Shown here: positions 49,475 to 59,896 of the stretch, one piece after another
Layout: each line of letters starts with the position of its first letter
Numbering within the stretch: the first letter of the stretch is position 1
Assembly: GCA_035699205.1 (NCBI GenBank)
Contig: DASSBA010000222.1
Location: forward strand, 33,988 to 97,987
Direction: 5' to 3'
Length of the DNA: 64,000 bases
Source of the DNA: Gemmatimonadales bacterium
GTDB lineage: Bacteria; Gemmatimonadota; Gemmatimonadetes; Gemmatimonadales; GWC2-71-9
Made by a program: the position numbers and the translations under genes
The notes under the pieces: generated by a model
The model's input: the letters and a program-made list of their open reading frames with translations, nothing else
The model's database searches: none
Told to the model about the DNA's origin: nothing

Positions 49475-50386
49475 CTACGCCCTGCCCAGATCCCCCGGCG
49501 CCCGTACCCGTCCCACCGCGCCGACCAGGGCGAGCAGCGTCAGCGCGTACGGCAGCATCAGAAAGAGCTGGTACGGCACCGCCAATCCGAGCGACTGGAA
49601 CACGTACTGCAGGGCCGTGGCGCCGCCGAAGAGGAGCGAAGCCACCAGGATGCCCGCCGGATGCCAGCGCCCGAGCACCACGATCGCGATCGCCACATAG
49701 CCGCGACCCGCCGTCATCCCCTCGGCAAAGGTACCCACCTGCGCCAGCACCAGCGTCGCGCCCGCGAGCCCGCCGAAGCCGCCGCCCACGAGGATGGCCC
49801 CTGCCCTCATGAGTCGCGTGCGCACGCCGGCCGCGCGCGCCATCGCGGCGGCTTCGCCGGTGGCCCGGAGCGCGAGCCCGAGCCGCGTGCGGAAGAGCAC
49901 CCACCAGACGAGCGGCAGCGCGAGGAAGGCGAGGTACGTCGGTGCCGGCTGTTCGAAGAGCGCGGGCCCGAGGAGCGGCACGCGCGCGAGCCCCGGGACC
50001 GGGAGCGCGGCGAGCGTCGGAAGCGCCAGGCCCGCGCCGCCCGTCCCGAACGCCTGGCGGTAGATCGTCCCGGTGAGACCGACGGCGCCGAGCGAGATCG
50101 CGGTGCCGGCGATGATCTGGTCCGCCCCTGCGCCGATCGCGACGGCCGCGAAGACCACGGCGAGTGCCATCCCCGCCAGCACGCCGGCCGCGACGCCGGT
50201 CCACGGCCCGACCGCGCTGGCCCCGAGCGTCGCCGCGAGCGCGCCGGCCAGCATCATCCCCTCGAGCCCCAGGTTGATCACACCGGCCCGCTCGGTCACC
50301 GTCTCGCCCGTGGCGGCCAGCAGGAGCGGCGTCGCCACCCGCACCGCCGCCGCGAGAAAGCCGCCGACGACGGCGGTCTCGATCAC
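49475..50386 (-). CDS. ABC transporter permease (BMP/nucleoside-sugar type, second)
   Basis: GTG 50386 in a GTGA overlap. Contains TERAGVINLGLEGMM and multiple TM helices. Confidence 0.85.
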   Translation of the reverse strand: MIETAVVGGFLAAAVRVATPLLLAATGETVTERAGVINLGLEGMMLAGALAATLGASAVGPWTGVAAGVLAGMALAVVFAAVAIGAGADQIIAGTAISLGAVGLTGTIYRQAFGTGGAGLALPTLAALPVPGLARVPLLGPALFEQPAPTYLAFLALPLVWWVLFRTRLGLALRATGEAAAMARAAGVRTRLMRAGAILVGGGFGGLAGATLVLAQVGTFAEGMTAGRGYVAIAIVVLGRWHPAGILVASLLFGGATALQYVFQSLGLAVPYQLFLMLPYALTLLALVGAVGRVRAPGDLGRA

Positions 50387-51405
50387 GACGACGCGCGCTC
50401 CGCCGGCGTCCGGCGCGCCGCCGCCTCGGCCAGCAGCACGACGATGAGCACCACCGCCTCGACCACGTAAACCGCCACCGCCGGCACGCCGGCGTCGCGT
50501 TGCATGGCACCGGCACCTGCTTCGAGGGCGCCGAACAGAAGCCCGCTGGCGAGCACTCCCAAGGGATGGAGCCGTGCCAGCAGCGCGACCGCGATTGCCG
50601 TGAAGCCGTACCCGGGCGACAGATTCTGAAACAGCGCGTAGGAGACCCCGCTGACCTCCACGCCGCCCGCGAGTCCGGCCAGCGCCCCGGATCCGAGCAG
50701 CGCGCCCGCGGCCACGCGGCCCGCGTCGATCCGGCCGCTGAGCTCCGCGGCGCGGGGACCCGCGCCTACGGCCTTGAGCCGGAACCCCCAGAGCGTACGG
50801 CGGAAGAGATACCAGAGCGCCACGGCGGCCACGAGCGCGAGCAGGAGCCCCGCGTGCAGCCGAGTGCCCGGCAGCAGCGGCAGCCGCGCGGCCGCCGCGA
50901 TGGGGTCGCTCTGGGGATAGATGTGCTGCGCCTCCTGCAGCGGGCCCTGCACCATCAGGCTGACCAGCGACTCGGCGACGAAGCTGAGGAGAAGTGTGCT
51001 GATCACCTCCATTACGTCGAACCGCAGCTTGAGCCAGACCGGCACCACGACCCAGGCCGCGCCGGCCAGCGTTGCCGTGGCGAGCACCAGGGCGACGGCC
51101 GGCACGGGGGGCCACCCCGCGACGTGCAGGCCGACCCATGTCGCGGCGATGGCGCCGGCGTAGAACTGGCCTTCCGCCCCGATGTTGAATGCACCGGCCC
51201 GGAACCCGAGCGCGACACCCAGCCCGATGATGATGAGCGGGATGGCCCGGACGAGGGTGGCGGAGGTGAACGCGTACCAGGAGCCGGCCGCGCCGCGCCA
51301 CAAGGCCGCGAGTGCCGCCCCCGCGTCGTACCCGGCCGCCTGAAGGCCCCCCGCGAGAACGGCGAGACCGAGCGCGAGCGCGAGCGCCGCGGTTCTAGTG
51401 CCCAC
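50383..51405 (-). CDS. ABC transporter permease (BMP/nucleoside-sugar type, first)
   Basis: 340 aa. Contains FNIGAEGQFYAG. GTG start overlaps the ATPase gene by 11 nt. Confidence 0.85.
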   Translation of the reverse strand: MGTRTAALALALGLAVLAGGLQAAGYDAGAALAALWRGAAGSWYAFTSATLVRAIPLIIIGLGVALGFRAGAFNIGAEGQFYAGAIAATWVGLHVAGWPPVPAVALVLATATLAGAAWVVVPVWLKLRFDVMEVISTLLLSFVAESLVSLMVQGPLQEAQHIYPQSDPIAAAARLPLLPGTRLHAGLLLALVAAVALWYLFRRTLWGFRLKAVGAGPRAAELSGRIDAGRVAAGALLGSGALAGLAGGVEVSGVSYALFQNLSPGYGFTAIAVALLARLHPLGVLASGLLFGALEAGAGAMQRDAGVPAVAVYVVEAVVLIVVLLAEAAARRTPAERASS

Positions 51406-52885
51406 CGGTCACCATCAACTCACCCACGTATGCTCGCCCGGCTCCCGTCGGCACCTCGATCAGGATCCCGCGGGCGGCCACGAGCACCCGGTCCGCCAGG
51501 GCGAGCACCTCGTCCAGGTCGCTCGAGTACACCAGCACGGCACCGCCGGCAGCCGCCGCGCCGCGGAGGCGGGCGTGGATGCCCGCCGCCGCACGGATGT
51601 CCAGCCCCCGCGTCGGATTCTCCGCCACCACCACGCGCGGCACGCGGGCGAGTTCGCGCGCCACGAGCAGCCTCTGCTGGTTGCCGCCGCTCAGCGCCGC
51701 CACCCGCGTGTCCGGACCCGGGGCCACGATCCCGAACTCCCGGAGCAGCGTCGCCGTGCACGCCCGGGCCGTACGCCAGTCGATGCGGCCGCGCCGGATC
51801 CATGGTTCATTCGCGCGCGAGCCGAGCACGACGTTCTCCGTGAGCGTGAGCTCGGGAATGAGCCCTTCGGTCGAGCGGTCCTCCGGCACGAATCCGACGG
51901 GCTCCGCGACCGCGCGCCGGCCGCGGAGCAGTCCGATGCGGCCGGCCACCGCGCGGAGCAGCTCCCGCTGCCCGTTCCCTTCCACCCCGGCCACCCCCAC
52001 GATCTCGCCGGCGCGGACGCTCAGTGAAGCCCGCCGCACGGCGATGCCGCGGCCGGCTTCGCGCGGGATCACCGCGTCGTCGAGCCGCACCAGAGCAGGG
52101 CCGGTCGTCGAAGCGTCACCGCGATCGCCGGCAGGACGGCCCGCCGGAGGGCTCGCCGAGGAGTCCACGCCCCCGCCGCCGATCATCGCCGCCGCCAGCG
52201 TGGCCGCGGTCTGCCCCTCCACCGGTCCCGCGAACACCACCTCTCCCTGCCGCAACACGGTCACCCGGTCCGCCGCCGTGAGCGCCTCGTCGAGCTTGTG
52301 GGTGATGAGCACCGCCGACCCGCCGCGCGCGGTGAACGCGCGGATCACACCGAGCAGGTCGTCCGCTTCGCCCGGCGCCAGCACCGCCGTGGGCTCGTCG
52401 AGGAGCAGGATGCGCGCGTCGGAGGCCAGTGCCTTCACGATCTCGAGCCGTTGCTTGAGCGAAACGCTCAGATCGCCGGCCCGGGTGTCCGGATCGAGCG
52501 GCAGGCCCGCCCCCTCGGCCAGCGCACGCACTCGCTCGCGCAGCCGGCGGGGGTGCGCGCTCCAGCCCGACGCGAGCGCCACGTTCTCCGCCACGGTCAG
52601 CGCCGGGACCGAAGTGGAGTGCTGGTGCACCATGCCGATCCCGAGCGCGCGCGCAGCACGCGGCGAGGCGATCGCGCGCGGCGTTCCGTTCACTTCGATC
52701 TGCCCGGCGTCCGGCCGCAGCAGACCGTACGCCATCTGCATGAGCGTCGTCTTGCCCGCGCCGTTCTCGCCGAGCAGCGCGTGCAGCTCGCCGGACATCA
52801 GCGTGAAATCGGCTCCGTGCAGTGCCTGCACGGAGCCGAAACGCTTGCCGATGCCGCGCAGTACGAGCGCGGGCGGAGCGGTCAC
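51395..52885 (-). CDS. ABC transporter ATP-binding protein with duplicated ATPase domains
   Basis: GTG 52885 in a GTGA overlap. Domain 1 has GENGAGKTT and LLLDEPT. Domain 2 has GVEGNGQ and LSGGNQQ. Confidence 0.9.
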   Translation of the reverse strand: MTAPPALVLRGIGKRFGSVQALHGADFTLMSGELHALLGENGAGKTTLMQMAYGLLRPDAGQIEVNGTPRAIASPRAARALGIGMVHQHSTSVPALTVAENVALASGWSAHPRRLRERVRALAEGAGLPLDPDTRAGDLSVSLKQRLEIVKALASDARILLLDEPTAVLAPGEADDLLGVIRAFTARGGSAVLITHKLDEALTAADRVTVLRQGEVVFAGPVEGQTAATLAAAMIGGGGVDSSASPPAGRPAGDRGDASTTGPALVRLDDAVIPREAGRGIAVRRASLSVRAGEIVGVAGVEGNGQRELLRAVAGRIGLLRGRRAVAEPVGFVPEDRSTEGLIPELTLTENVVLGSRANEPWIRRGRIDWRTARACTATLLREFGIVAPGPDTRVAALSGGNQQRLLVARELARVPRVVVAENPTRGLDIRAAAGIHARLRGAAAAGGAVLVYSSDLDEVLALADRVLVAARGILIEVPTGAGRAYVGELMVTGGH

Positions 52886-53679
52886 AACCCGGTGGGATGG
52901 TCGTGGAACTCCCAGTCGAGGCCGAATCGCTCGGCGACATGGGAGGCGAGCGCCTGGACGCCCAGCGTCTCGGTGGCGTAGTGCCCGGCGAAGATGACGT
53001 TGAGGCCCCACTCCATCGCGTCGAAGTAGGTGTAGTGCGCGCCCTCGCCCGTGATGAAGGTGTCGAGGCCCGCATCGCGCGCGGCGCCGATCATGCCGCC
53101 CGCTCCGCCGGTGATGATACCGATGCGCGCCACACGTTCGGGGCCGCCTTCGATCAGCCGGGCGCCCGGCTGGAGGGTACCGAGCGCGTGGTTCACATCG
53201 GCCAGCAGCACGTCCCGCGGCACCAGGCGCGCGGGTGCGTGGCCCCACACACCGATCGGTACGCCCTTGTAGTCGCCGAACCAACCCTCGACCGCGAGCC
53301 CCAGCCGCTCCGCGAGCACGACATTGTTGCCGACGGCCGGGTGCAGATCGAGCGGGATGTGCGCGGAGTAGAGCGCGATGTCGTGCTCCAGCAGCGCCGC
53401 CACTCGCCGGTACCGGCGGCCCGTGAGAGGGACGTTGCCGTCCCAGAACAGACCGTGATGCACGAGCACGAGCGGCGGAGCGTCGTCCTCGCCGGAACGA
53501 TTCGCGAGGACGCCGTCGATGGTCGCCTGCGATGCGTCCACCGCCGCGACGATCCCGCCGATCAGGCCCCGGTTCTCCACCTGCAGGCCGTTGACCGCAT
53601 TGCGCTCGTCGGGGATCTCGCGCACGCGCAGGTAGCCGTCCAGGTACTCGACGATCTCGGACAGCGGAACGGCGGTCAC
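52882..53679 (-). CDS. Nif3-like dinuclear metal centre protein (YbgI/YqfO family)
   Basis: NGLQVEN, LVLVHHGLFW, and a C-terminal GHYATE are typical of NIF3. GTG 53679 is preferred (GGGAGGG upstream); GTG 53706 is the alternative. Confidence 0.8.
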   Translation of the reverse strand: MTAVPLSEIVEYLDGYLRVREIPDERNAVNGLQVENRGLIGGIVAAVDASQATIDGVLANRSGEDDAPPLVLVHHGLFWDGNVPLTGRRYRRVAALLEHDIALYSAHIPLDLHPAVGNNVVLAERLGLAVEGWFGDYKGVPIGVWGHAPARLVPRDVLLADVNHALGTLQPGARLIEGGPERVARIGIITGGAGGMIGAARDAGLDTFITGEGAHYTYFDAMEWGLNVIFAGHYATETLGVQALASHVAERFGLDWEFHDHPTGL

Positions 53680-53699
53680 GTTGGTGCCACCCTCCCGCT

Positions 53700-54800
53700 T
53701 CACCACGGAGGCACGGCGGGCGCGGCGAACGCAACGGATTTCCGGTTGTCTCCGTGTACCTCCGTGCCTCCGTGCCTCCGTGGTGAAGCGGACCCCGGCG
53801 AATTCCCCGATGCCTGCATGGACGCGGGTCGCGGCGCCGCGACCAGCGTCCCCGCCGCGATCGAGTCCGACGCGGCCCGCACCCGCGCCGCGAGCGCGCC
53901 CGGCACCAGCCTTCCGAGCCCCGGGTTGGGCTCGTAGCGGACGACACCGCTCGAGAGCCCGAATGCTTCTACTTTCGGCGTGAACGTGCCCTGTTTCACC
54001 TCCTGCGCCACGAGCAGGAATGCCCGCGGCAGGTCGATGACCGCGTTTCCGAGGACGTGGTCCGGCGCCAGCGACGACTGGTCCGCGTTGGCGCCGAACA
54101 CATACACCCCTGGCGACTCCTTGGCTGCCTGGAAGACGCCGAGCGCGGCGGCATCGGCGTTGTGATGGAGCATGTCGGCGCCGATCCGGATCAGGGCCAG
54201 CGCCGCCTCGCGGCCGGCCGCGGCATCGTCGAAGCTGTTGAGATAGATCTTCCGGCTCTCGACTCGGGGATTCACCGCCTTGGCGCCGTTCACCCAGCCT
54301 TCGTACGCAGCCTCGATCGGCGGCAGCTCGATCCCGCCCACGAAGCCCAGCACGTTGCTGCGCGTGAGCCCTCCCGCCACCATGCCGGCCAGGTAACTCG
54401 CTTCCTCCAACCGGAAAATCAGGGGCGCCACGTTGCCGTGCGCCCGCGAGCCGGACGTGACGATGAACACCGTCCCTGGGTATTCCGCCGAGACCCGCTC
54501 CGCGGCGCCCTGGAATTCGAACCCATGGGCGAAGACCAGCTCATAGCCCTGCGCTGCGTAGGTCCGGAGCGCCTCATCCTGCTCGGCCGGCGTGCGTGCT
54601 TCGACGTGGCTGATGGCAAGGCCGAGCGAGTCGTGAATCCGTTGGAGTCCGGCGAACGCACCCGAGTTCCAGGCCGCATCGGCGACGCTCCCGGGCGTGA
54701 TGAGGCCAACGCGAATTCCTGCCACGGCGGCAGGCTTCGCGCACCCGACGAGCAACACCATGGCGACAGCATGGAGCCAGCTAGCAGGCAACGCGCTCAT
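53700..54800 (-). CDS. BMP-family (PnrA/Med-like) ABC substrate-binding lipoprotein
   Basis: ATG 54800. Lipobox LLVGC. Contains GLITPGSVADAAWN, FGANADQ. The last ~45 codons run through the repeat element at 53701-53785. Confidence 0.85.
   Translation of the reverse strand: MSALPASWLHAVAMVLLVGCAKPAAVAGIRVGLITPGSVADAAWNSGAFAGLQRIHDSLGLAISHVEARTPAEQDEALRTYAAQGYELVFAHGFEFQGAAERVSAEYPGTVFIVTSGSRAHGNVAPLIFRLEEASYLAGMVAGGLTRSNVLGFVGGIELPPIEAAYEGWVNGAKAVNPRVESRKIYLNSFDDAAAGREAALALIRIGADMLHHNADAAALGVFQAAKESPGVYVFGANADQSSLAPDHVLGNAVIDLPRAFLLVAQEVKQGTFTPKVEAFGLSSGVVRYEPNPGLGRLVPGALAARVRAASDSIAAGTLVAAPRPASMQASGNSPGSASPRRHGGTEVHGDNRKSVAFAAPAVPPW
53701..53785. repeat. hairpin with perfect 16-bp stem and CTCCGTGC octamer array
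   Basis: caccacggaggcacgg (53701-53716) is the exact reverse complement of ccgtgcctccgtggtg (53770-53785). The right arm is part of about four tandem ctccgtgN units (53748-53783). Confidence 0.8.
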
Positions 54801-54823
54801 TTTCCACAACTTAGGCTGGCTTA

Positions 54824-55243
54824 TCAACTCTTGTGGGAATCCTCTGCCGCCGTTCCGGCACCGGGGTCCATTTTCACTTCCCCGCTCACCTTGGCACCCT
54901 CGACCACGGCGATGCGGGGCGTGTGAATGTCCCCCGCCACGACGGCCGTCGCTTGGAGCTCGACCCGCTCGCGGGCGATGATGGCACCGCTCACCTGGCC
55001 GGCGACCACCGCCTCCTGGGTGTGCAGATCGCCCTCGATCACGGCGCCGGCCGCGACCAGGACCTGGCCGCCGACGCGCACCGTCCCGCGGACGCGACCC
55101 TCGACCCGGACCACGCCCTCGGTCTCCAGATCTCCGATCACGGTCATGTCGGCCGCGATGATCGAAAAGGGGATCTGGTCGGTGCGTCGGCGGCGGAGCT
55201 CGTTCCCCTCTTCGTCCCGCGCCGGGTTGGTGAAGAACCCCAT
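54824..55243 (-). CDS. bactofilin family cytoskeletal protein
   Basis: 139 aa. A repetitive beta-helix pattern (VIGDLETEGVVRVEGRVRGTVRVGG...) with AAGGAG upstream. Confidence 0.85.
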   Translation of the reverse strand: MGFFTNPARDEEGNELRRRRTDQIPFSIIAADMTVIGDLETEGVVRVEGRVRGTVRVGGQVLVAAGAVIEGDLHTQEAVVAGQVSGAIIARERVELQATAVVAGDIHTPRIAVVEGAKVSGEVKMDPGAGTAAEDSHKS

Positions 55244-56037
55244 CAGTTACTCTCCTTGATCATGGTTCGCGGATCGACCGAGACCCCCTTCTGCCGGATC
55301 TCGAAGTGCAGGTGCGGCGCGGTCGAGCGCCCGGTGTTGCCGCTGAGGCCGATCACCTGGCCGGGCGCGACCGATGCGCCCGGCGCCACCAGAATGCGGG
55401 AGAGATGGCCGTACATCGTCTGGTAATTGTCCGGGTGGTCGAGCAGCACGAACGAGCCGTACTCGGGATCCTCGCCGAGCTGGCGGACGGTCCCACCGCC
55501 GGACGCGCGGACGATGCTTCCGACCGCGACCGCGATATCGAGCCCCGGATGTGCCTCGTCGCTGGTTCCGGTCCCGACCTGCCCGCGGGTGATGTACCCT
55601 GGCTCGTCGAGCGGCCAGCGACGCGGGATCGAGAGCCCTACCGAGGGGCCGCGAGGCGCGTCCGCCACTCGGGCCTGGACCGAGGGAGCGACCGGCAGCG
55701 CTTCCCCGAGCGTCAGCGGGTCGCGCACGATATCCCCACCGATCATTTGACGCACCTGTGCATACCGTGACTCGACGCTGTCGAGAGCCGCGCTGAGCTG
55801 GCGCACCTTCGCATTGTCCGCCTCCAGCCGGGCGACGTCGTGCTCCAGTCCGGGCACCCGCGCCGCGGCGCGAACCAGTGGCGCATACAGCGCCGCGGAT
55901 ACCACGACCCCGACGACGGCAGTCCCCATGAAGCCGACCGCGGCCCGGAGCATCCAGTGCGGCACCCGGTATGTCTGCGACCGGGTGGCGCCGTCCGGCT
56001 GGACGACGATCGTCACCGCGCGGGCCGCGCGCTTCAT
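55243..56037 (-). CDS. M23 (LytM) family metallopeptidase
   Basis: N-terminal TM helix plus coiled coil. Contains HPGLDIA and HLHFEI metal-ligand motifs. ATGA overlap with parB. Confidence 0.85.
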   Translation of the reverse strand: MKRAARAVTIVVQPDGATRSQTYRVPHWMLRAAVGFMGTAVVGVVVSAALYAPLVRAAARVPGLEHDVARLEADNAKVRQLSAALDSVESRYAQVRQMIGGDIVRDPLTLGEALPVAPSVQARVADAPRGPSVGLSIPRRWPLDEPGYITRGQVGTGTSDEAHPGLDIAVAVGSIVRASGGGTVRQLGEDPEYGSFVLLDHPDNYQTMYGHLSRILVAPGASVAPGQVIGLSGNTGRSTAPHLHFEIRQKGVSVDPRTMIKESN

Positions 56038-56933
56038 CCCTGAAAGGGCCGGCCGAGGATCAGCTCGAGAAGGCGGGCGAGATCGTCGTTGGAGTAGTAG
56101 CTGACGGTGAGAAAGCCGCGCCCGCGACGCCGGGTCGTGAGCCGCACATCGGTGCCGAAGTGCTTGCGGAGTGCGTCCTCGACGCGGCGCGCGTCGGCGG
56201 CAACGGCGCGCTGGGCAGGCCGGGCGCGCTTCGGGGCGGGTGCGCCTTCGGGGGATCCGCCGGCAGGGCCATCCCCCCGGACGCGCGCCTCGATCTCCCG
56301 CACCGACCAGCCCTCGTCCACCGCTTGGCGGGCCAGGCTGATCATCGCCTCCGACTCGGCGAGCGCGAGCAGCGCACGCGCGTGGCCTTCGGAAAGCTTG
56401 CGCTCGTGCACCAGCGCCTGCACCTCCGGTGGGAGTTGCAGCAGGCGGAGCAGATTCGCGACCGTGCTCCGGTTCCGGCCGACCAGGCGCGCGATCTCCG
56501 CCTGAGGCAACTGGAACTCCGTGCCGAGTCGCTGGTAGCCTCCGGCCTCGTCGATCGGCGAAAGGTTGTCGCGCTGGAGATTCTCGATGAGCGCCAGGGT
56601 GAGAAGCGTCGGGTCATCGACGTCCTTCACGACGGCGGGGATCCTGGTCCAGCCGAGCTTGGTGGCCGCGCGCCAGCGGCGCTCGCCAGCGATGAGCTCG
56701 TAGCCGCCGTTCCGCGGGCGGACGATCACCGGCTGCAGGAGTCCGGAGGCCCGGATCGATGCCACCAGTTCGTCGAGCGGCCCCTCGTCCATCCGCGTGC
56801 GTGGCTGAAACGGATTGGGCTTGATGCTCGACATGGCAAGTTCGCGCAGGGCGCCCGACGCCTCGGCCTGCTCGCGCGACACCGGACCGAGCAGCGCCTC
56901 GAGTCCACGCCCCAGCCGCTTCGTCTCGCTCAC
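56034..56933 (-). CDS. parB: chromosome partitioning protein ParB
   Basis: GTG 56933 in a GTGA overlap. Contains KRLGRGLEALL, GERRWRAA, and the HTH segment EIARLVGRNRSTVANLLRLL. Confidence 0.9.
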   Translation of the reverse strand: MSETKRLGRGLEALLGPVSREQAEASGALRELAMSSIKPNPFQPRTRMDEGPLDELVASIRASGLLQPVIVRPRNGGYELIAGERRWRAATKLGWTRIPAVVKDVDDPTLLTLALIENLQRDNLSPIDEAGGYQRLGTEFQLPQAEIARLVGRNRSTVANLLRLLQLPPEVQALVHERKLSEGHARALLALAESEAMISLARQAVDEGWSVREIEARVRGDGPAGGSPEGAPAPKRARPAQRAVAADARRVEDALRKHFGTDVRLTTRRRGRGFLTVSYYSNDDLARLLELILGRPFQG

Positions 56934-57745
56934 GTGGCCACCTCTGGCAGCGGCTCGGGGGTCTCGGAGACGGTGGCGCCCTCCAGCCGACGCATCAGCT
57001 CCTGCGCCACGGAGAGATAGCTCTTGGCGCCCACCGACTGGACGTCGTAGAGGAGGATCGGTTTGCCGAAGCTCGGCGCCTCGGCGAGGCGCACGTTCCG
57101 TGGGATCGGCGTGACGAACATCTTGCCGCCGAAGTACTCCTTGGCGTCCTCCGCCACCTGACGGCACAGGTTGAGGCGCGAGTCGTACATGGTGAGGAGC
57201 ACGCCGCTGATCGCGAGTCCGGGATTGAAGTTCTGCTGGACGAGGCGGACGGTGTTGAGCAGCTGCGAGATCCCCTCGAGTCCGTAGTACTCGCACTGAA
57301 TGGGGATGAGCACCGTGTTGGCGGCGGCGAGCACGTTGAGGGTGAGCAGGCCGAGTGAGGGTGGGCAGTCCACTACCATATAGTCGTAGTCGTCGTGCAG
57401 GGTGTCGAGCACGCTGCGGAGTGCCGACTCGCGGTTGTCGCGCTCGACCAGCTGCAGCTCGGCGCCCACCAGGTCCTGAGTCGCGGGGAGCACCGAGAGG
57501 TGGGGGAGCGCCGAGACGGGAAGGATCACCTCTCGCGGTGGCCGCCCTTCGACGATGGAGTCGTAGAGCGTGAGCTCCAGCTCGTGCTTGACGATACCAA
57601 GACCGCTCGTGGCGTTCCCCTGGGGGTCCGCGTCCACCAGCAGCGTACGTCGCTCGGCGATGGCCAGCGAGGCGGCGAGGTTGACTGCGGTCGTCGTCTT
57701 CCCGACGCCGCCCTTCTGGTTGGCGATGGCTACAATATGGGCCAT
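56930..57745 (-). CDS. parA: chromosome partitioning ATPase ParA/Soj
   Basis: 271 aa. Deviant Walker A NQKGGVGKTTT. Confidence 0.9.
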   Translation of the reverse strand: MAHIVAIANQKGGVGKTTTAVNLAASLAIAERRTLLVDADPQGNATSGLGIVKHELELTLYDSIVEGRPPREVILPVSALPHLSVLPATQDLVGAELQLVERDNRESALRSVLDTLHDDYDYMVVDCPPSLGLLTLNVLAAANTVLIPIQCEYYGLEGISQLLNTVRLVQQNFNPGLAISGVLLTMYDSRLNLCRQVAEDAKEYFGGKMFVTPIPRNVRLAEAPSFGKPILLYDVQSVGAKSYLSVAQELMRRLEGATVSETPEPLPEVAT

Positions 57746-57876
57746 GAATCCAGCCGAGCTGTAAGTTGTTTTGCGACAACGGCTTACAGTGATTCAAGCC
57801 GATTTGTCAGGCGGGCGGCGCGGGACTGCGATTGGGTCAATATAGAAGGTGAGACGTGGGGCGCCAACTGGCGAAC

Positions 57877-57892
57877 CGTTTCGCGTGAAACG
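57877..57892. promoter_or_regulatory. parS-like site (one core mismatch)
   Basis: CGTTTCGCGTGAAACG compared with the consensus TGTTNCACGTGAAACA. Confidence 0.6.
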
Positions 57893-57944
57893 GCGGCACG
57901 CTGGGGATGGAAGGCCGGCATGATCTTCGGCCAGGCTCGTTCAA

Positions 57945-57960
57945 GGTTTCACGTGAAACA
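57945..57960. promoter_or_regulatory. parS site
   Basis: GGTTTCACGTGAAACA matches 15 of 16 positions of the consensus TGTTTCACGTGAAACA. It lies 5 nt from the mnmG stop and about 200 nt upstream of parA. Confidence 0.8.
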
Positions 57961-57964
57961 CCCG

Positions 57965-59896
57965 TCAGGATGGATGTCGAAGCTTCACGACCTCCATGAC
58001 CAGGCTCTGAAGATCGCTGGGTGAGACGCCGGGCACCCGACCGGCCTGACCCAGCGATGCAGGCCGGAGTGCCGAGAGCTTTTCACGGGCCTCGAACGAC
58101 AGAGTGGCGAGGCGGCGGTAGTCCAGGTCCGGGGGGAGCACGAACGCCTCCATCTGCGAGAGGCGCGACGCCGCCGCACGCTCACGCGCGAGGTAGCCCG
58201 AATACTTCAGCTCGATGTTCGCCCACGTGGCGGTTCCCTGATCCACACACTCGCCCCCGGCCGCCAGCAGGGCACACAGCGAGGTGCCGGGACGCTTTGC
58301 CAGCTCCGCGGCCCGCTGACGCTGCCCCACCACGGAAGAACCAGCCGATTCCAGGATCACATTCGCCACCGCCGGATCGATCCAGGTGGCTTCGGCCAAT
58401 TCCAGGACTCTCTCTTCGTCTCCCAGACGCCGTTCGGCACTCCGCAGCTCGTCGTCGCTCAGCAACCCCAGCCGCTCGGCGAGCGGGAACAATCGCCGGA
58501 GTGCGTTGTCTTGCCGAAGCAGAAGTCGAAATTCGGACCGGGAGGTGAACAGCCGGTACGGCTCGTCCACGCCCCGAGTCACCAGATCGTCCACCAGCAC
58601 GCCGATCAACGCGATGTCACGCGGGAGCACCACCGATTCGCGCTCGAGCGCGCGCGCCGCCGCATTGAGCCCAGCCAGCGCGCCTTGTCCGGCCGCCTCC
58701 TCGTAACCCGTAGTGCCGTTGACCTGTCCCGCCAGGAACAGGCCCGGCGCCCCGCGGACTTCGAGCGTCGGGAGTAGCTGCGTCGGAGGGAAGTAGTCGT
58801 ACTCTATGGCATACCCTGGGCGGGTCATTCGCACCTGCTCGAGTCCGGGGACGGCACGGAGAAATTCGAGCTGAACCGCCGGAGGCAGCGACGTCGACAG
58901 ACCGTTCACGTACATCTCGGTCGTGTCGAGCCCCTCAGGTTCCAGGAATACCTGGTGCCCATCGACCTCCGGAAATTTTACGATCTTGTCTTCGATCGAC
59001 GGGCAGTACCGCGGCCCCCGCCCGCTGATCGCACCGCCATACAACGCTGACTCGTGGAGATGCCGCTGGATGATGTCACGCAGCCGGGCGTCTGACCGCG
59101 TGAGATAGCAGGGCCGCTGTTCGGGATGCTGGACCTGCGCGTGGAAGGAGAACCAGAACGGTACCTGATCCCCGTCCTGCCGCTCCAATCGCCCGACGTC
59201 CACCGAGCGGCCGTCAACTCGCGGTGGCGTACCCGTCTTGAAGCGAGCAACCGTAAGTCCAATGTATTCAAGAGCTTGCGCTATTTCTACGGCTGGGCTT
59301 TCGCCCGCCCGCCCCGCGGCGAGTTGAGTATCCAGTCCGAGGTGAATCCGGCCGCGGAGGAAGGTCCCCGCCGTCACCACCAGCGCGGACGCCTGGAATC
59401 GCCGACCGTCAACGGTTCCAATCCCGCATACGCGACCCCCCTCCATGATGAGAGTCGCGGCGGTGCCTTGGGCAAATTCGAGCGCCGAGATTCGTTCCAA
59501 CGATGAACGCACCGCACGCCGGTACAGCCCGCGATCGCACTGCGCTCTCGGGGACCACACCGCCGGCCCCTTGGACCGATTGAGCATCCGGAACTGGATT
59601 CGCGCCAGATCCGTCGCGCGGCCCATGATGCCGCCCAGCGCATCCACCTCGCGAACCACGGTGCCCTTGGCGATCCCTCCGATCGCCGGGTTGCACGACA
59701 TCTGCCCGATCGTCTCGAGGTTCTGGGTCAGCAGCAGCGTACGCGCGCCGGAGCGCGCGGCCAGGGCAGCGGCCTCGGTGCCCGCATGCCCGCCGCCGAT
59801 GACGATGACGTCGTAGTGGTTGTGCTTGCGAGGAAATGTAGGGAGAAACGCGTCGAGCGAGGGACGGCGGATGTCCGGCCCCCGGCGCCGAGGCAC
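57965..59896 (-). CDS. mnmG: tRNA uridine 5-carboxymethylaminomethyl modification enzyme MnmG (GidA)
   Basis: 643 aa. Contains YDVIVIGGGHAGTEAA and is GidA-like over its full length. Confidence 0.95.
   Translation of the reverse strand: MPRRRGPDIRRPSLDAFLPTFPRKHNHYDVIVIGGGHAGTEAAALAARSGARTLLLTQNLETIGQMSCNPAIGGIAKGTVVREVDALGGIMGRATDLARIQFRMLNRSKGPAVWSPRAQCDRGLYRRAVRSSLERISALEFAQGTAATLIMEGGRVCGIGTVDGRRFQASALVVTAGTFLRGRIHLGLDTQLAAGRAGESPAVEIAQALEYIGLTVARFKTGTPPRVDGRSVDVGRLERQDGDQVPFWFSFHAQVQHPEQRPCYLTRSDARLRDIIQRHLHESALYGGAISGRGPRYCPSIEDKIVKFPEVDGHQVFLEPEGLDTTEMYVNGLSTSLPPAVQLEFLRAVPGLEQVRMTRPGYAIEYDYFPPTQLLPTLEVRGAPGLFLAGQVNGTTGYEEAAGQGALAGLNAAARALERESVVLPRDIALIGVLVDDLVTRGVDEPYRLFTSRSEFRLLLRQDNALRRLFPLAERLGLLSDDELRSAERRLGDEERVLELAEATWIDPAVANVILESAGSSVVGQRQRAAELAKRPGTSLCALLAAGGECVDQGTATWANIELKYSGYLARERAAASRLSQMEAFVLPPDLDYRRLATLSFEAREKLSALRPASLGQAGRVPGVSPSDLQSLVMEVVKLRHPS

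Follow-up and report, generated by a model that had tools for sequence, protein, structure and literature searches.

An M23 peptidase-bactofilin gene pair joined to the chromosomal parAB genes in Gemmatimonadota

Described systems and the four-gene block

Bactofilin genes have been described beside genes for M23 peptidases and, in other bacteria, beside the chromosomal partition genes parA and parB. In this study we analyse a locus in which both linkages occur together, a block of parA, parB, M23 peptidase and bactofilin genes that lies within a 64 kb stretch of DNA, of 70% G+C, from a Gemmatimonadales soil bacterium (the whole stretch is called the window here). For the peptidase-bactofilin half of the block the system to compare is LmdC-BacA of Hyphomonas neptunium and Rhodospirillum rubrum. 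LmdC is a bitopic M23 DD-endopeptidase, its cytoplasmic beta-hairpin tail binds BacA and its gene adjoins the bactofilin gene; M23-bactofilin gene pairs of this sort have been reported in 226 species from many phyla (PMC10945521). In Helicobacter pylori the M23 genes of Csd1 and Csd2 adjoin the bactofilin gene ccmA, which shapes the cell wall (PMC9507126), and the link between Csd1 and CcmA has been described as possibly indirect, by way of Csd1 stability (PMC13393453). The other half has its counterpart in Myxococcus xanthus, where parA, parB, bacM and MXAN_7474 are co-transcribed (PMC3899335), and in Bdellovibrio bacteriovorus, where parA (bd3906) and parB (bd3905) are followed near parS by bd3904, a bactofilin homologue (PMC10547168, Fig. 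1B legend).

In the window the four genes are read from the minus strand. The gene upstream is mnmG/gidA (57965..59896, minus strand), and after a spacer of 219 nt comes parA (56930..57745), identified by Pfam, which encodes a Soj-type partition ATPase of 271 aa. It is followed by parB (56034..56933), for a chromosomal ParB/Spo0J protein of 299 aa, which begins with a GTG codon that overlaps the parA stop codon as GTGA and has a GAGGTGG Shine-Dalgarno sequence. The gene for a 264-aa protein, predicted to be an LmdC-like bitopic M23 metallo-endopeptidase (55243..56037), overlaps the parB stop codon with its ATG as ATGA and has no Shine-Dalgarno sequence of its own. The bactofilin gene (54824..55243, 139 aa) overlaps the stop codon of the M23 gene by 1 nt, as TGATG, and its Shine-Dalgarno sequence, AAGGAGAG (55250..55257, minus strand), is found 8 nt before the ATG, within codons K261 and E262 of the M23 protein. 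All of these junctions had been given in the original prediction, together with the AAGGAG ahead of the bactofilin gene, and they were verified on the sequence. Pfam E-values were 2e-61 for ParA (AAA_31/CbiA), 2e-31 for Peptidase_M23, 4e-24 for Bactofilin and 2e-49 for the Bmp protein encoded downstream. A scan of the window for terminator-like sites returned none within the four-gene block.

The explanation that we favour, with moderate confidence, is that a known M23-bactofilin module for shaping the cell wall has been captured into a centromere-proximal parAB operon, and that the linkage serves shared expression and does not build a physical machine joining segregation to the wall. The locus resembles LmdC-BacA in the tightly packed order of M23 gene then bactofilin gene, in the bitopic M23 protein with its complete zinc site and in the small, short-tailed beta-helix bactofilin. 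It differs in the surroundings of the pair, which belongs to a parAB operon next to parS and has its M23 gene translationally coupled to parB. With 264 aa the M23 protein is also shorter than LmdC, and it has one modelled helix against the three predicted coiled-coil regions of LmdC. Myxococcus xanthus, with a bactofilin gene downstream of chromosomal parAB, provides a direct precedent for the parAB-bactofilin half. However, no M23 gene has been reported between parB and bacM in that operon, and the fourth gene there is for a lipoprotein whose function is unknown. Nor is an M23 gene mentioned for the Bdellovibrio locus, and in H. pylori, unlike the window, there are two M23 paralogues, one of them inactive, and no linkage to parAB.

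Each of the pairwise linkages, and every component, is thus known already, whereas the three-way, centromere-adjacent operon, found here in three orders, is new. The original prediction was not aware of any characterisation of the arrangement in this kind of organism. What stands of this is that the searchable papers report neither the three-way fusion nor its presence in Gemmatimonadota; the parAB-bactofilin and M23-bactofilin linkages themselves have been published. A text search of the published list of 226 species for 'Gemmatimon' gave no match (PMC10945521), a literature search found no description of bactofilins in Gemmatimonadota, and the detailed study of Gemmatimonadota cell biology does not mention them (PMC11271474).

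Conservation and expression signals

A scan of species-representative genomes produced 80 loci, all of them from Gemmatimonadales, with bactofilins 78-93% identical to that of the window (the loci of relatives, close and distant, are labelled L001-L096). Homologues nearest to the window likewise come from named Gemmatimonadales. Gene order in these 80 was assigned by a phmmer screen, and loci with enough flanking sequence were counted. Every such locus has mnmG-parA-parB-M23-bactofilin-(Bmp)-NIF3 in the same order and on the same strand. The spacing is almost as constant: of 72 loci, 69 have a parA/parB junction of -4 or -8 nt, while 73 of 77 have a parB/M23 junction of -4 nt and 77 of 78 an M23/bactofilin junction of -1 nt. 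In about 78 related loci the block is set off by real intergenic gaps, of 219-1086 nt on the parA side and of 14-98 nt on the bactofilin side. The packing of the four genes is beyond chance.

Close relatives have the entire neighbourhood in common. More telling is a distant set of seven loci or lineages with the block, in which the bactofilin is only about 50-63% identical to that of the window. In these the parA-parB-M23-bactofilin block is intact although both flanks turn over. L084 has an ABC exporter upstream, and Bmp and then unrelated genes downstream; L091 has AhpC upstream; NIF3 comes directly after the bactofilin gene in L087/L088 and directly after the block in L090, which lies on a 3.86 Mb contig; and L092/L093 keep the order seen in the window. 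L094, attributed to Palauibacterales via named relatives of a linked gene, has a Na/Ca exchanger and a toxin-antitoxin pair downstream. L095 (1-7465) is from a metagenome-assembled genome of Longimicrobiales, and its block comes after dnaA (divergent) and rpmH-rnpA-yidC. The block here lies at the presumed origin, and mnmG is not upstream of it. In two cases the block is whole even though junctions do not overlap, these being Longimicrobiales L095 (+15 and +39 nt) and the L088 lineage (+26 and +1 nt).

The block has now been sampled in three orders, Gemmatimonadales, Palauibacterales and Longimicrobiales, and the possibility that the arrangement was peculiar to a single genome, which would have spoken against the original prediction, can be set aside. 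In the distant sample all seven of the M23-linked bactofilins are also parAB-linked. Stand-alone bactofilin paralogues (L086, L089 and L096) have neither an M23 nor a parAB neighbour, and as L089 and L090 are on one 3.86 Mb contig, at least one Gemmatimonadota genome has two bactofilin paralogues. The stand-alone paralogues retain an M-x-hydrophobic-F motif at the N-terminus. Profile searches with diverse bactofilins gave matches mostly from Gemmatimonadota, and a plasmid collection searched with the bactofilin yielded no match at E <= 1e-6.

Sequence upstream of parA is conserved in a manner consistent with one point of transcription initiation. A consensus scan placed a promoter-like element, TTGGCG-17 nt-TATATT, at 57839..57867 on the minus strand. 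Its -10-like box, CTATATT, lies about 100-150 nt ahead of the parA ATG and does not vary among 20 aligned loci, distant lineages included; in the same alignment parS lies a few tens of nt further upstream. TATATT occurs 100-200 nt upstream of parA in 74/80 loci and practically nowhere else in the block, and the comparison of relatives disclosed no comparable promoter-like box inside the four genes. When the 64 kb window was scanned for parS there were two matches, against 0.07 expected by chance, and both are between mnmG and parA. One is parS itself, GGTTTCACGTGAAACA (57945..57960), with one mismatch to the consensus; the other is a degenerate parS-like site, CGTTTCGCGTGAAACG (57877..57892), with three mismatches, which aligns with the promoter-proximal parS of relatives. 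All 68 relatives whose sequence extends far enough upstream have a parS with no more than two mismatches within 1.2 kb ahead of parA, and the rest of each locus is free of parS. In every relative examined there are one or two parS sites, directly upstream of the CTATATT box. From there ParB could act as a regulator of the operon that encodes it, including the M23 and bactofilin genes, and the arrangement suggests ParB-dependent control of the parA promoter and so of the block. The gap between the proximal parS and the putative -35 measures 9 nt in the window.

Signals for translation also differ from gene to gene in a consistent way. For parB, 74 of 75 loci have a Shine-Dalgarno sequence of 5 nt or longer; for the M23 gene, 58 of 64 lack one; and for the bactofilin gene, 62 of 85 have one of 6 nt or longer. 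As it has no Shine-Dalgarno sequence of its own, the M23 protein is probably made via the translation of parB. K261 and E262 of the M23 protein (codons at 55246-55251) are near-invariant though they lie beyond the M23 domain, probably because AAGGAG serves as the Shine-Dalgarno sequence of the next gene, the constraint being on the nucleotides and not on the protein. The layout suggests that more bactofilin than M23 protein is produced, as would suit a scaffold whose partner is a potentially harmful hydrolase, and it looks tuned. That the four genes form one coupled unit, as was originally proposed, is borne out by the conserved overlaps, by the lone promoter-like box and parS upstream, by the M23 gene without a Shine-Dalgarno sequence and by the retention of the block while its flanks change.

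The encoded proteins and the meaning of the linkage

The M23 protein consists of a tail (residues 1-28), a transmembrane helix (about 29-52), a coiled coil to about residue 99, a linker and the M23 domain (162-256). Five K/R and one D/E among the first 28 residues give these a net charge of +4, and the segment at about 29-52 is the lone hydrophobic one. An AlphaFold2 model has a beta-hairpin at 7-12/21-26, a long helix at 27-99, a disordered linker and the M23 fold at 163-256. The five zinc and catalytic residues, H163, D167, H211, H242 and H244, are invariant in 44 close and 7 distant sequences, and in the same sequences the tail motif VT.V.[QH].DG..S..YRVP.W.LR is largely conserved across the three orders. 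The closest solved M23 domains are those of ShyA and Csd1 (5j1l_A), both of which are active endopeptidases. Bitopic topology, complete active-site residues, a beta-hairpin in the tail and a gene adjoining that of a bactofilin are the features of the LmdC type, and all of them were found. With this architecture and an intact active site, the protein is predicted to be LmdC-like and catalytically competent.

The bactofilin has a beta-helix core (residues 27-123) and a short C-terminal tail of about 15 residues. It scores 85.1 bits against PF04519/DUF583 (cut-off 27.9), covering profile positions 1-97 of 98, and matches the solved structures of Caulobacter crescentus BacA (2n3d, 2e-11) and of a Thermus bactofilin (6ria). 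Its N-terminus, M-G-[IFL]-F-[SNT], is conserved in relatives and has a hydrophobic dipeptide as in the published membrane-targeting consensus MFSKKKK, but not the lysines that this consensus combines with its hydrophobic residues (PMC12448750). ParB scores 183 bits against TIGR00180 in NCBIfam, with a cut-off of 58, and carries ParB_N, HTH_ParB and ParB_C by Pfam. In Pfam neither ParA (271 aa) nor ParB (299 aa) shows any domain beyond the standard ones. With a Soj-type ParA, a ParB that has the N-terminal CTPase, HTH and C-terminal dimerisation domains, and parS beside parA, the locus has what characterises a chromosomal ParABS system.

Put together, these observations allow a scheme for the origin and working of the block. 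The sampled Gemmatimonadota orders probably descend from an early ancestor in which a parAB operon had captured a module of the LmdC-BacA kind. Transcription would begin at the conserved promoter by parS and proceed through parA, parB, the M23 gene and the bactofilin gene, and translation would be graded, with parB using its own Shine-Dalgarno sequence, the M23 gene relying on termination-reinitiation at ATGA and the bactofilin gene being boosted by AAGGAG. By homology, the bactofilin would polymerise under the inner membrane and bind the cytoplasmic beta-hairpin tail of the bitopic M23 protein. The endopeptidase would in this way be concentrated at defined periplasmic sites, where local loosening of the wall could lead to cell shaping or remodelling. 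What the linkage to parAB adds is most likely shared, origin-proximal and possibly ParB-modulated expression.

Several points weigh against this scheme. There may be an internal promoter within parB or the M23 gene, the single transcript being deduced from the layout, and it is from homology to described systems that the bactofilin is predicted to polymerise and to bind the tail, and the M23 protein to act as a hydrolase. The hairpin of the M23 model has a pLDDT of 64-82, the mean for the model being 66, and the alignment behind it is shallow (67-92% identity). The M23 protein was likened to LmdC by its described architecture, and its tail hairpin to the tail of LmdC (with R25/H26/L27 and R30/S31 in R. 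rubrum) at the level of predicted structure. The N-terminus of the bactofilin, MGFFTNPA, differs from MFSKKKK in having no lysine among its first 10 residues, with arginines at 9 and 17-20. Finally, the persistence of the block amid the turnover of its flanks exceeds what co-expression needs, and a direct functional tie fits this persistence at least as well.

Such a tie could take the form of a bactofilin polymer acting as a shared scaffold that binds ParA and/or ParB-parS as well as the M23 protein, so that the position of the origin would dictate the site of remodelling, or the reverse. The four genes do stay joined across three orders while their neighbours change, the translation of the M23 gene is coupled to that of parB, and the genes are 1-3 kb from parS, where ParB could plausibly spread. 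Adjacency of parAB and bactofilin genes recurs in Myxococcus and Bdellovibrio (PMC3899335, PMC10547168), and bactofilins can organise ParABS, as is established for BacNOP-PadC of M. xanthus, which positions ParA and ParB-parS and is encoded away from parAB (PMC5703909). That scaffold needs the ParB-like adaptor PadC, three co-polymerising paralogues and a long C-terminal tail on BacP (PMC5703909), and it has no peptidase partner. The block, in contrast, showed no second ParB-like gene of the PadC kind, either in the window or in relatives annotated with Pfam; the bactofilin tail has about 15 residues, and ParA and ParB have standard domains only. Overlaps are also common in these genomes (as among the Bmp, NIF3, ABC-ATPase and permease genes), and by themselves they are therefore little informative. 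The sole parAB-linked bactofilin for which a test has been reported is BacM, and deletion of bacM did not significantly affect the localisation of ParA and ParB, BacM acting exclusively in cell shape (PMC5703909). The positioning of ParABS by bactofilins in Myxococcus, from which the original prediction had argued, hence holds for BacNOP with PadC and not for the bactofilin encoded in the parAB operon. BacM is co-transcribed with parAB and yet dispensable for positioning ParABS, which favours co-expression over physical coupling. On this balance we regard a shared scaffold as rather unlikely, and the earlier proposal that a scaffold couples chromosome segregation to wall remodelling is not supported by the BacM result, the adaptor search or the domain content of the two Par proteins.

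The opposite view is that the adjacency has no function, the M23-bactofilin pair having landed by parAB once and been frozen there by the overlaps, with unrelated processes sharing their expression to no benefit. Overlaps do make breakpoints inside the block deleterious, and stand-alone bactofilin paralogues occur in the same genomes. Among the published M23-bactofilin pairs covered here, most are at mid-chromosome positions and by their coordinates would usually not be near parAB (PMC10945521). Against freezing, the block is intact in Longimicrobiales and in the L088 lineage despite junctions that do not overlap, the Shine-Dalgarno layout looks tuned and every M23-linked bactofilin in the sample is parAB-linked too, and we think a functionless adjacency distinctly improbable. 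A single lead to such linkage outside the phylum is the published pair of Halothermothrix orenii at 2,565,508-2,566,934 (PMC10945521). This position is probably near the end of the chromosome, where Firmicutes usually carry soj-spo0J. A further alternative concerns the M23 protein, which could be a non-catalytic regulator, like EnvC, NlpD and Csd2, that activates amidases or stabilises a partner. Many members of the M23 family have lost activity (PMC10945521), and the protein falls below the cut-off of every NCBIfam enzyme equivalog. With its five active-site residues invariant among the 44 close and 7 distant sequences and active endopeptidases as its best solved matches, this is very hard to credit.

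If the preferred reading holds and the linkage is one of co-expression, the M23-bactofilin module is extended to a phylum that was not found in the text search of the published survey. The operon would still exemplify graded translation, with the Shine-Dalgarno sequence of the scaffold gene inside the last codons of the enzyme gene and with coupling of the enzyme to ParB; the conserved arrangement of parS and promoter would still hint at ParB-dependent control. The precedent of BacM in Myxococcus is that a common operon need not mean a common function. If the linkage is functional, this would be the first case of a partitioning machinery and a bactofilin-guided wall hydrolase built as one unit, and it would offer a testable handle on the placement of division sites and on polar appendages in an abundant soil phylum with almost no cell biology. 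In Gemmatimonadota binary fission takes place at 1/2, 1/3 or 1/4 positions, Min, MipZ, PomZ, MapZ and SsgAB are apparently all absent, which would leave room for a shared scaffold, and the cells bear enigmatic polar, spherical, DNA-containing appendages that were once taken for buds (PMC11271474). In its boldest form the idea is that bactofilin and M23 protein belong to the segregation apparatus as functioning components, and that the filament tethers or reads ParB-parS or ParA and places the hydrolase accordingly, so that the origin sets the site of remodelling. We give this form little credence, but were it true the module could supply the missing positional cue for division at 1/2, 1/3 and 1/4 and could underlie the polar appendages (PMC11271474). 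An explanation through budding, by analogy with Hyphomonas, was considered and is weakened by time-lapse observations of binary fission in Gemmatimonadota (PMC11271474).

Flanking regions

The region between mnmG and parA has further features. The gene rsmG/gidB usually sits between these two. It is absent from the spacer of the window (57746-57964) and from those of L001 (5313-6274) and L003 (5388-6298). At 219 nt the spacer of the window is the short end of a range that reaches about 1.1 kb in relatives, and in its long forms there is a second parS about 920-990 nt upstream; a gene hidden in the long spacers was looked for and rejected, as only arbitrary ORFs were present. Within the parA leader there is an AT-rich inverted repeat, CTGTAAG-N17-CTTACAG (57759..57789, minus strand), which is conserved in the alignment and takes the form GTAAGT...ACTTAC in relatives. 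It may be a protein-binding site. A structured RNA was rejected for this repeat, its fold being no better than that of shuffled sequences (z = -0.73) and the window having no Rfam match. Searches of the window by tblastn gave no match to dnaA or yidC, which places the origin itself outside these 64 kb.

At the other end of the block the ATG of a gene for a Bmp/PnrA lipoprotein is found 23 nt after the bactofilin stop codon, and NIF3 and ABC transporter genes come next. The adjacency was as originally described, the gap having been given there as 24 nt. A second promoter-like element, TTGATA-17 nt-GAAAAT (54799..54827, minus strand), was located by the consensus scan and overlaps the stop codon of the bactofilin gene. 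Conservation of the sequence TTGATAAgCCnGCCTAAGTTGTGGAAAAT at this element extends to relatives in which the reading frame is closed. The element probably drives the Bmp-NIF3-ABC transporter genes and marks the end of the four-gene unit. No terminator was seen between the bactofilin gene and this downstream run, and read-through from the parA promoter could therefore reach nine genes. The Bmp, NIF3, ABC-ATPase and two permease genes (49475-53706) make up this second overlapping series, encoded on the same strand as the block. Generic gene packing was considered as an explanation of the overlaps in the block and was rejected in part, overlaps being present downstream too but the block being bounded by real gaps and promoter-like elements.

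NIF3/DUF34 (52882-53706) is a recurrent downstream neighbour, found after Bmp in Gemmatimonadales and directly after the bactofilin gene in several distant lineages (L087, L090 and L095); of the seven distant lineages, L084 and L094 alone lack it, as far as their sequence extends. The start of the Bmp gene is ambiguous, and could be the ATG at 54800, which is within the putative -10, or an in-frame TTG at 54827. Initiation at the TTG would create a fourth overlap, TTGA, and would give the lipoprotein a more canonical signal peptide, with lysines.

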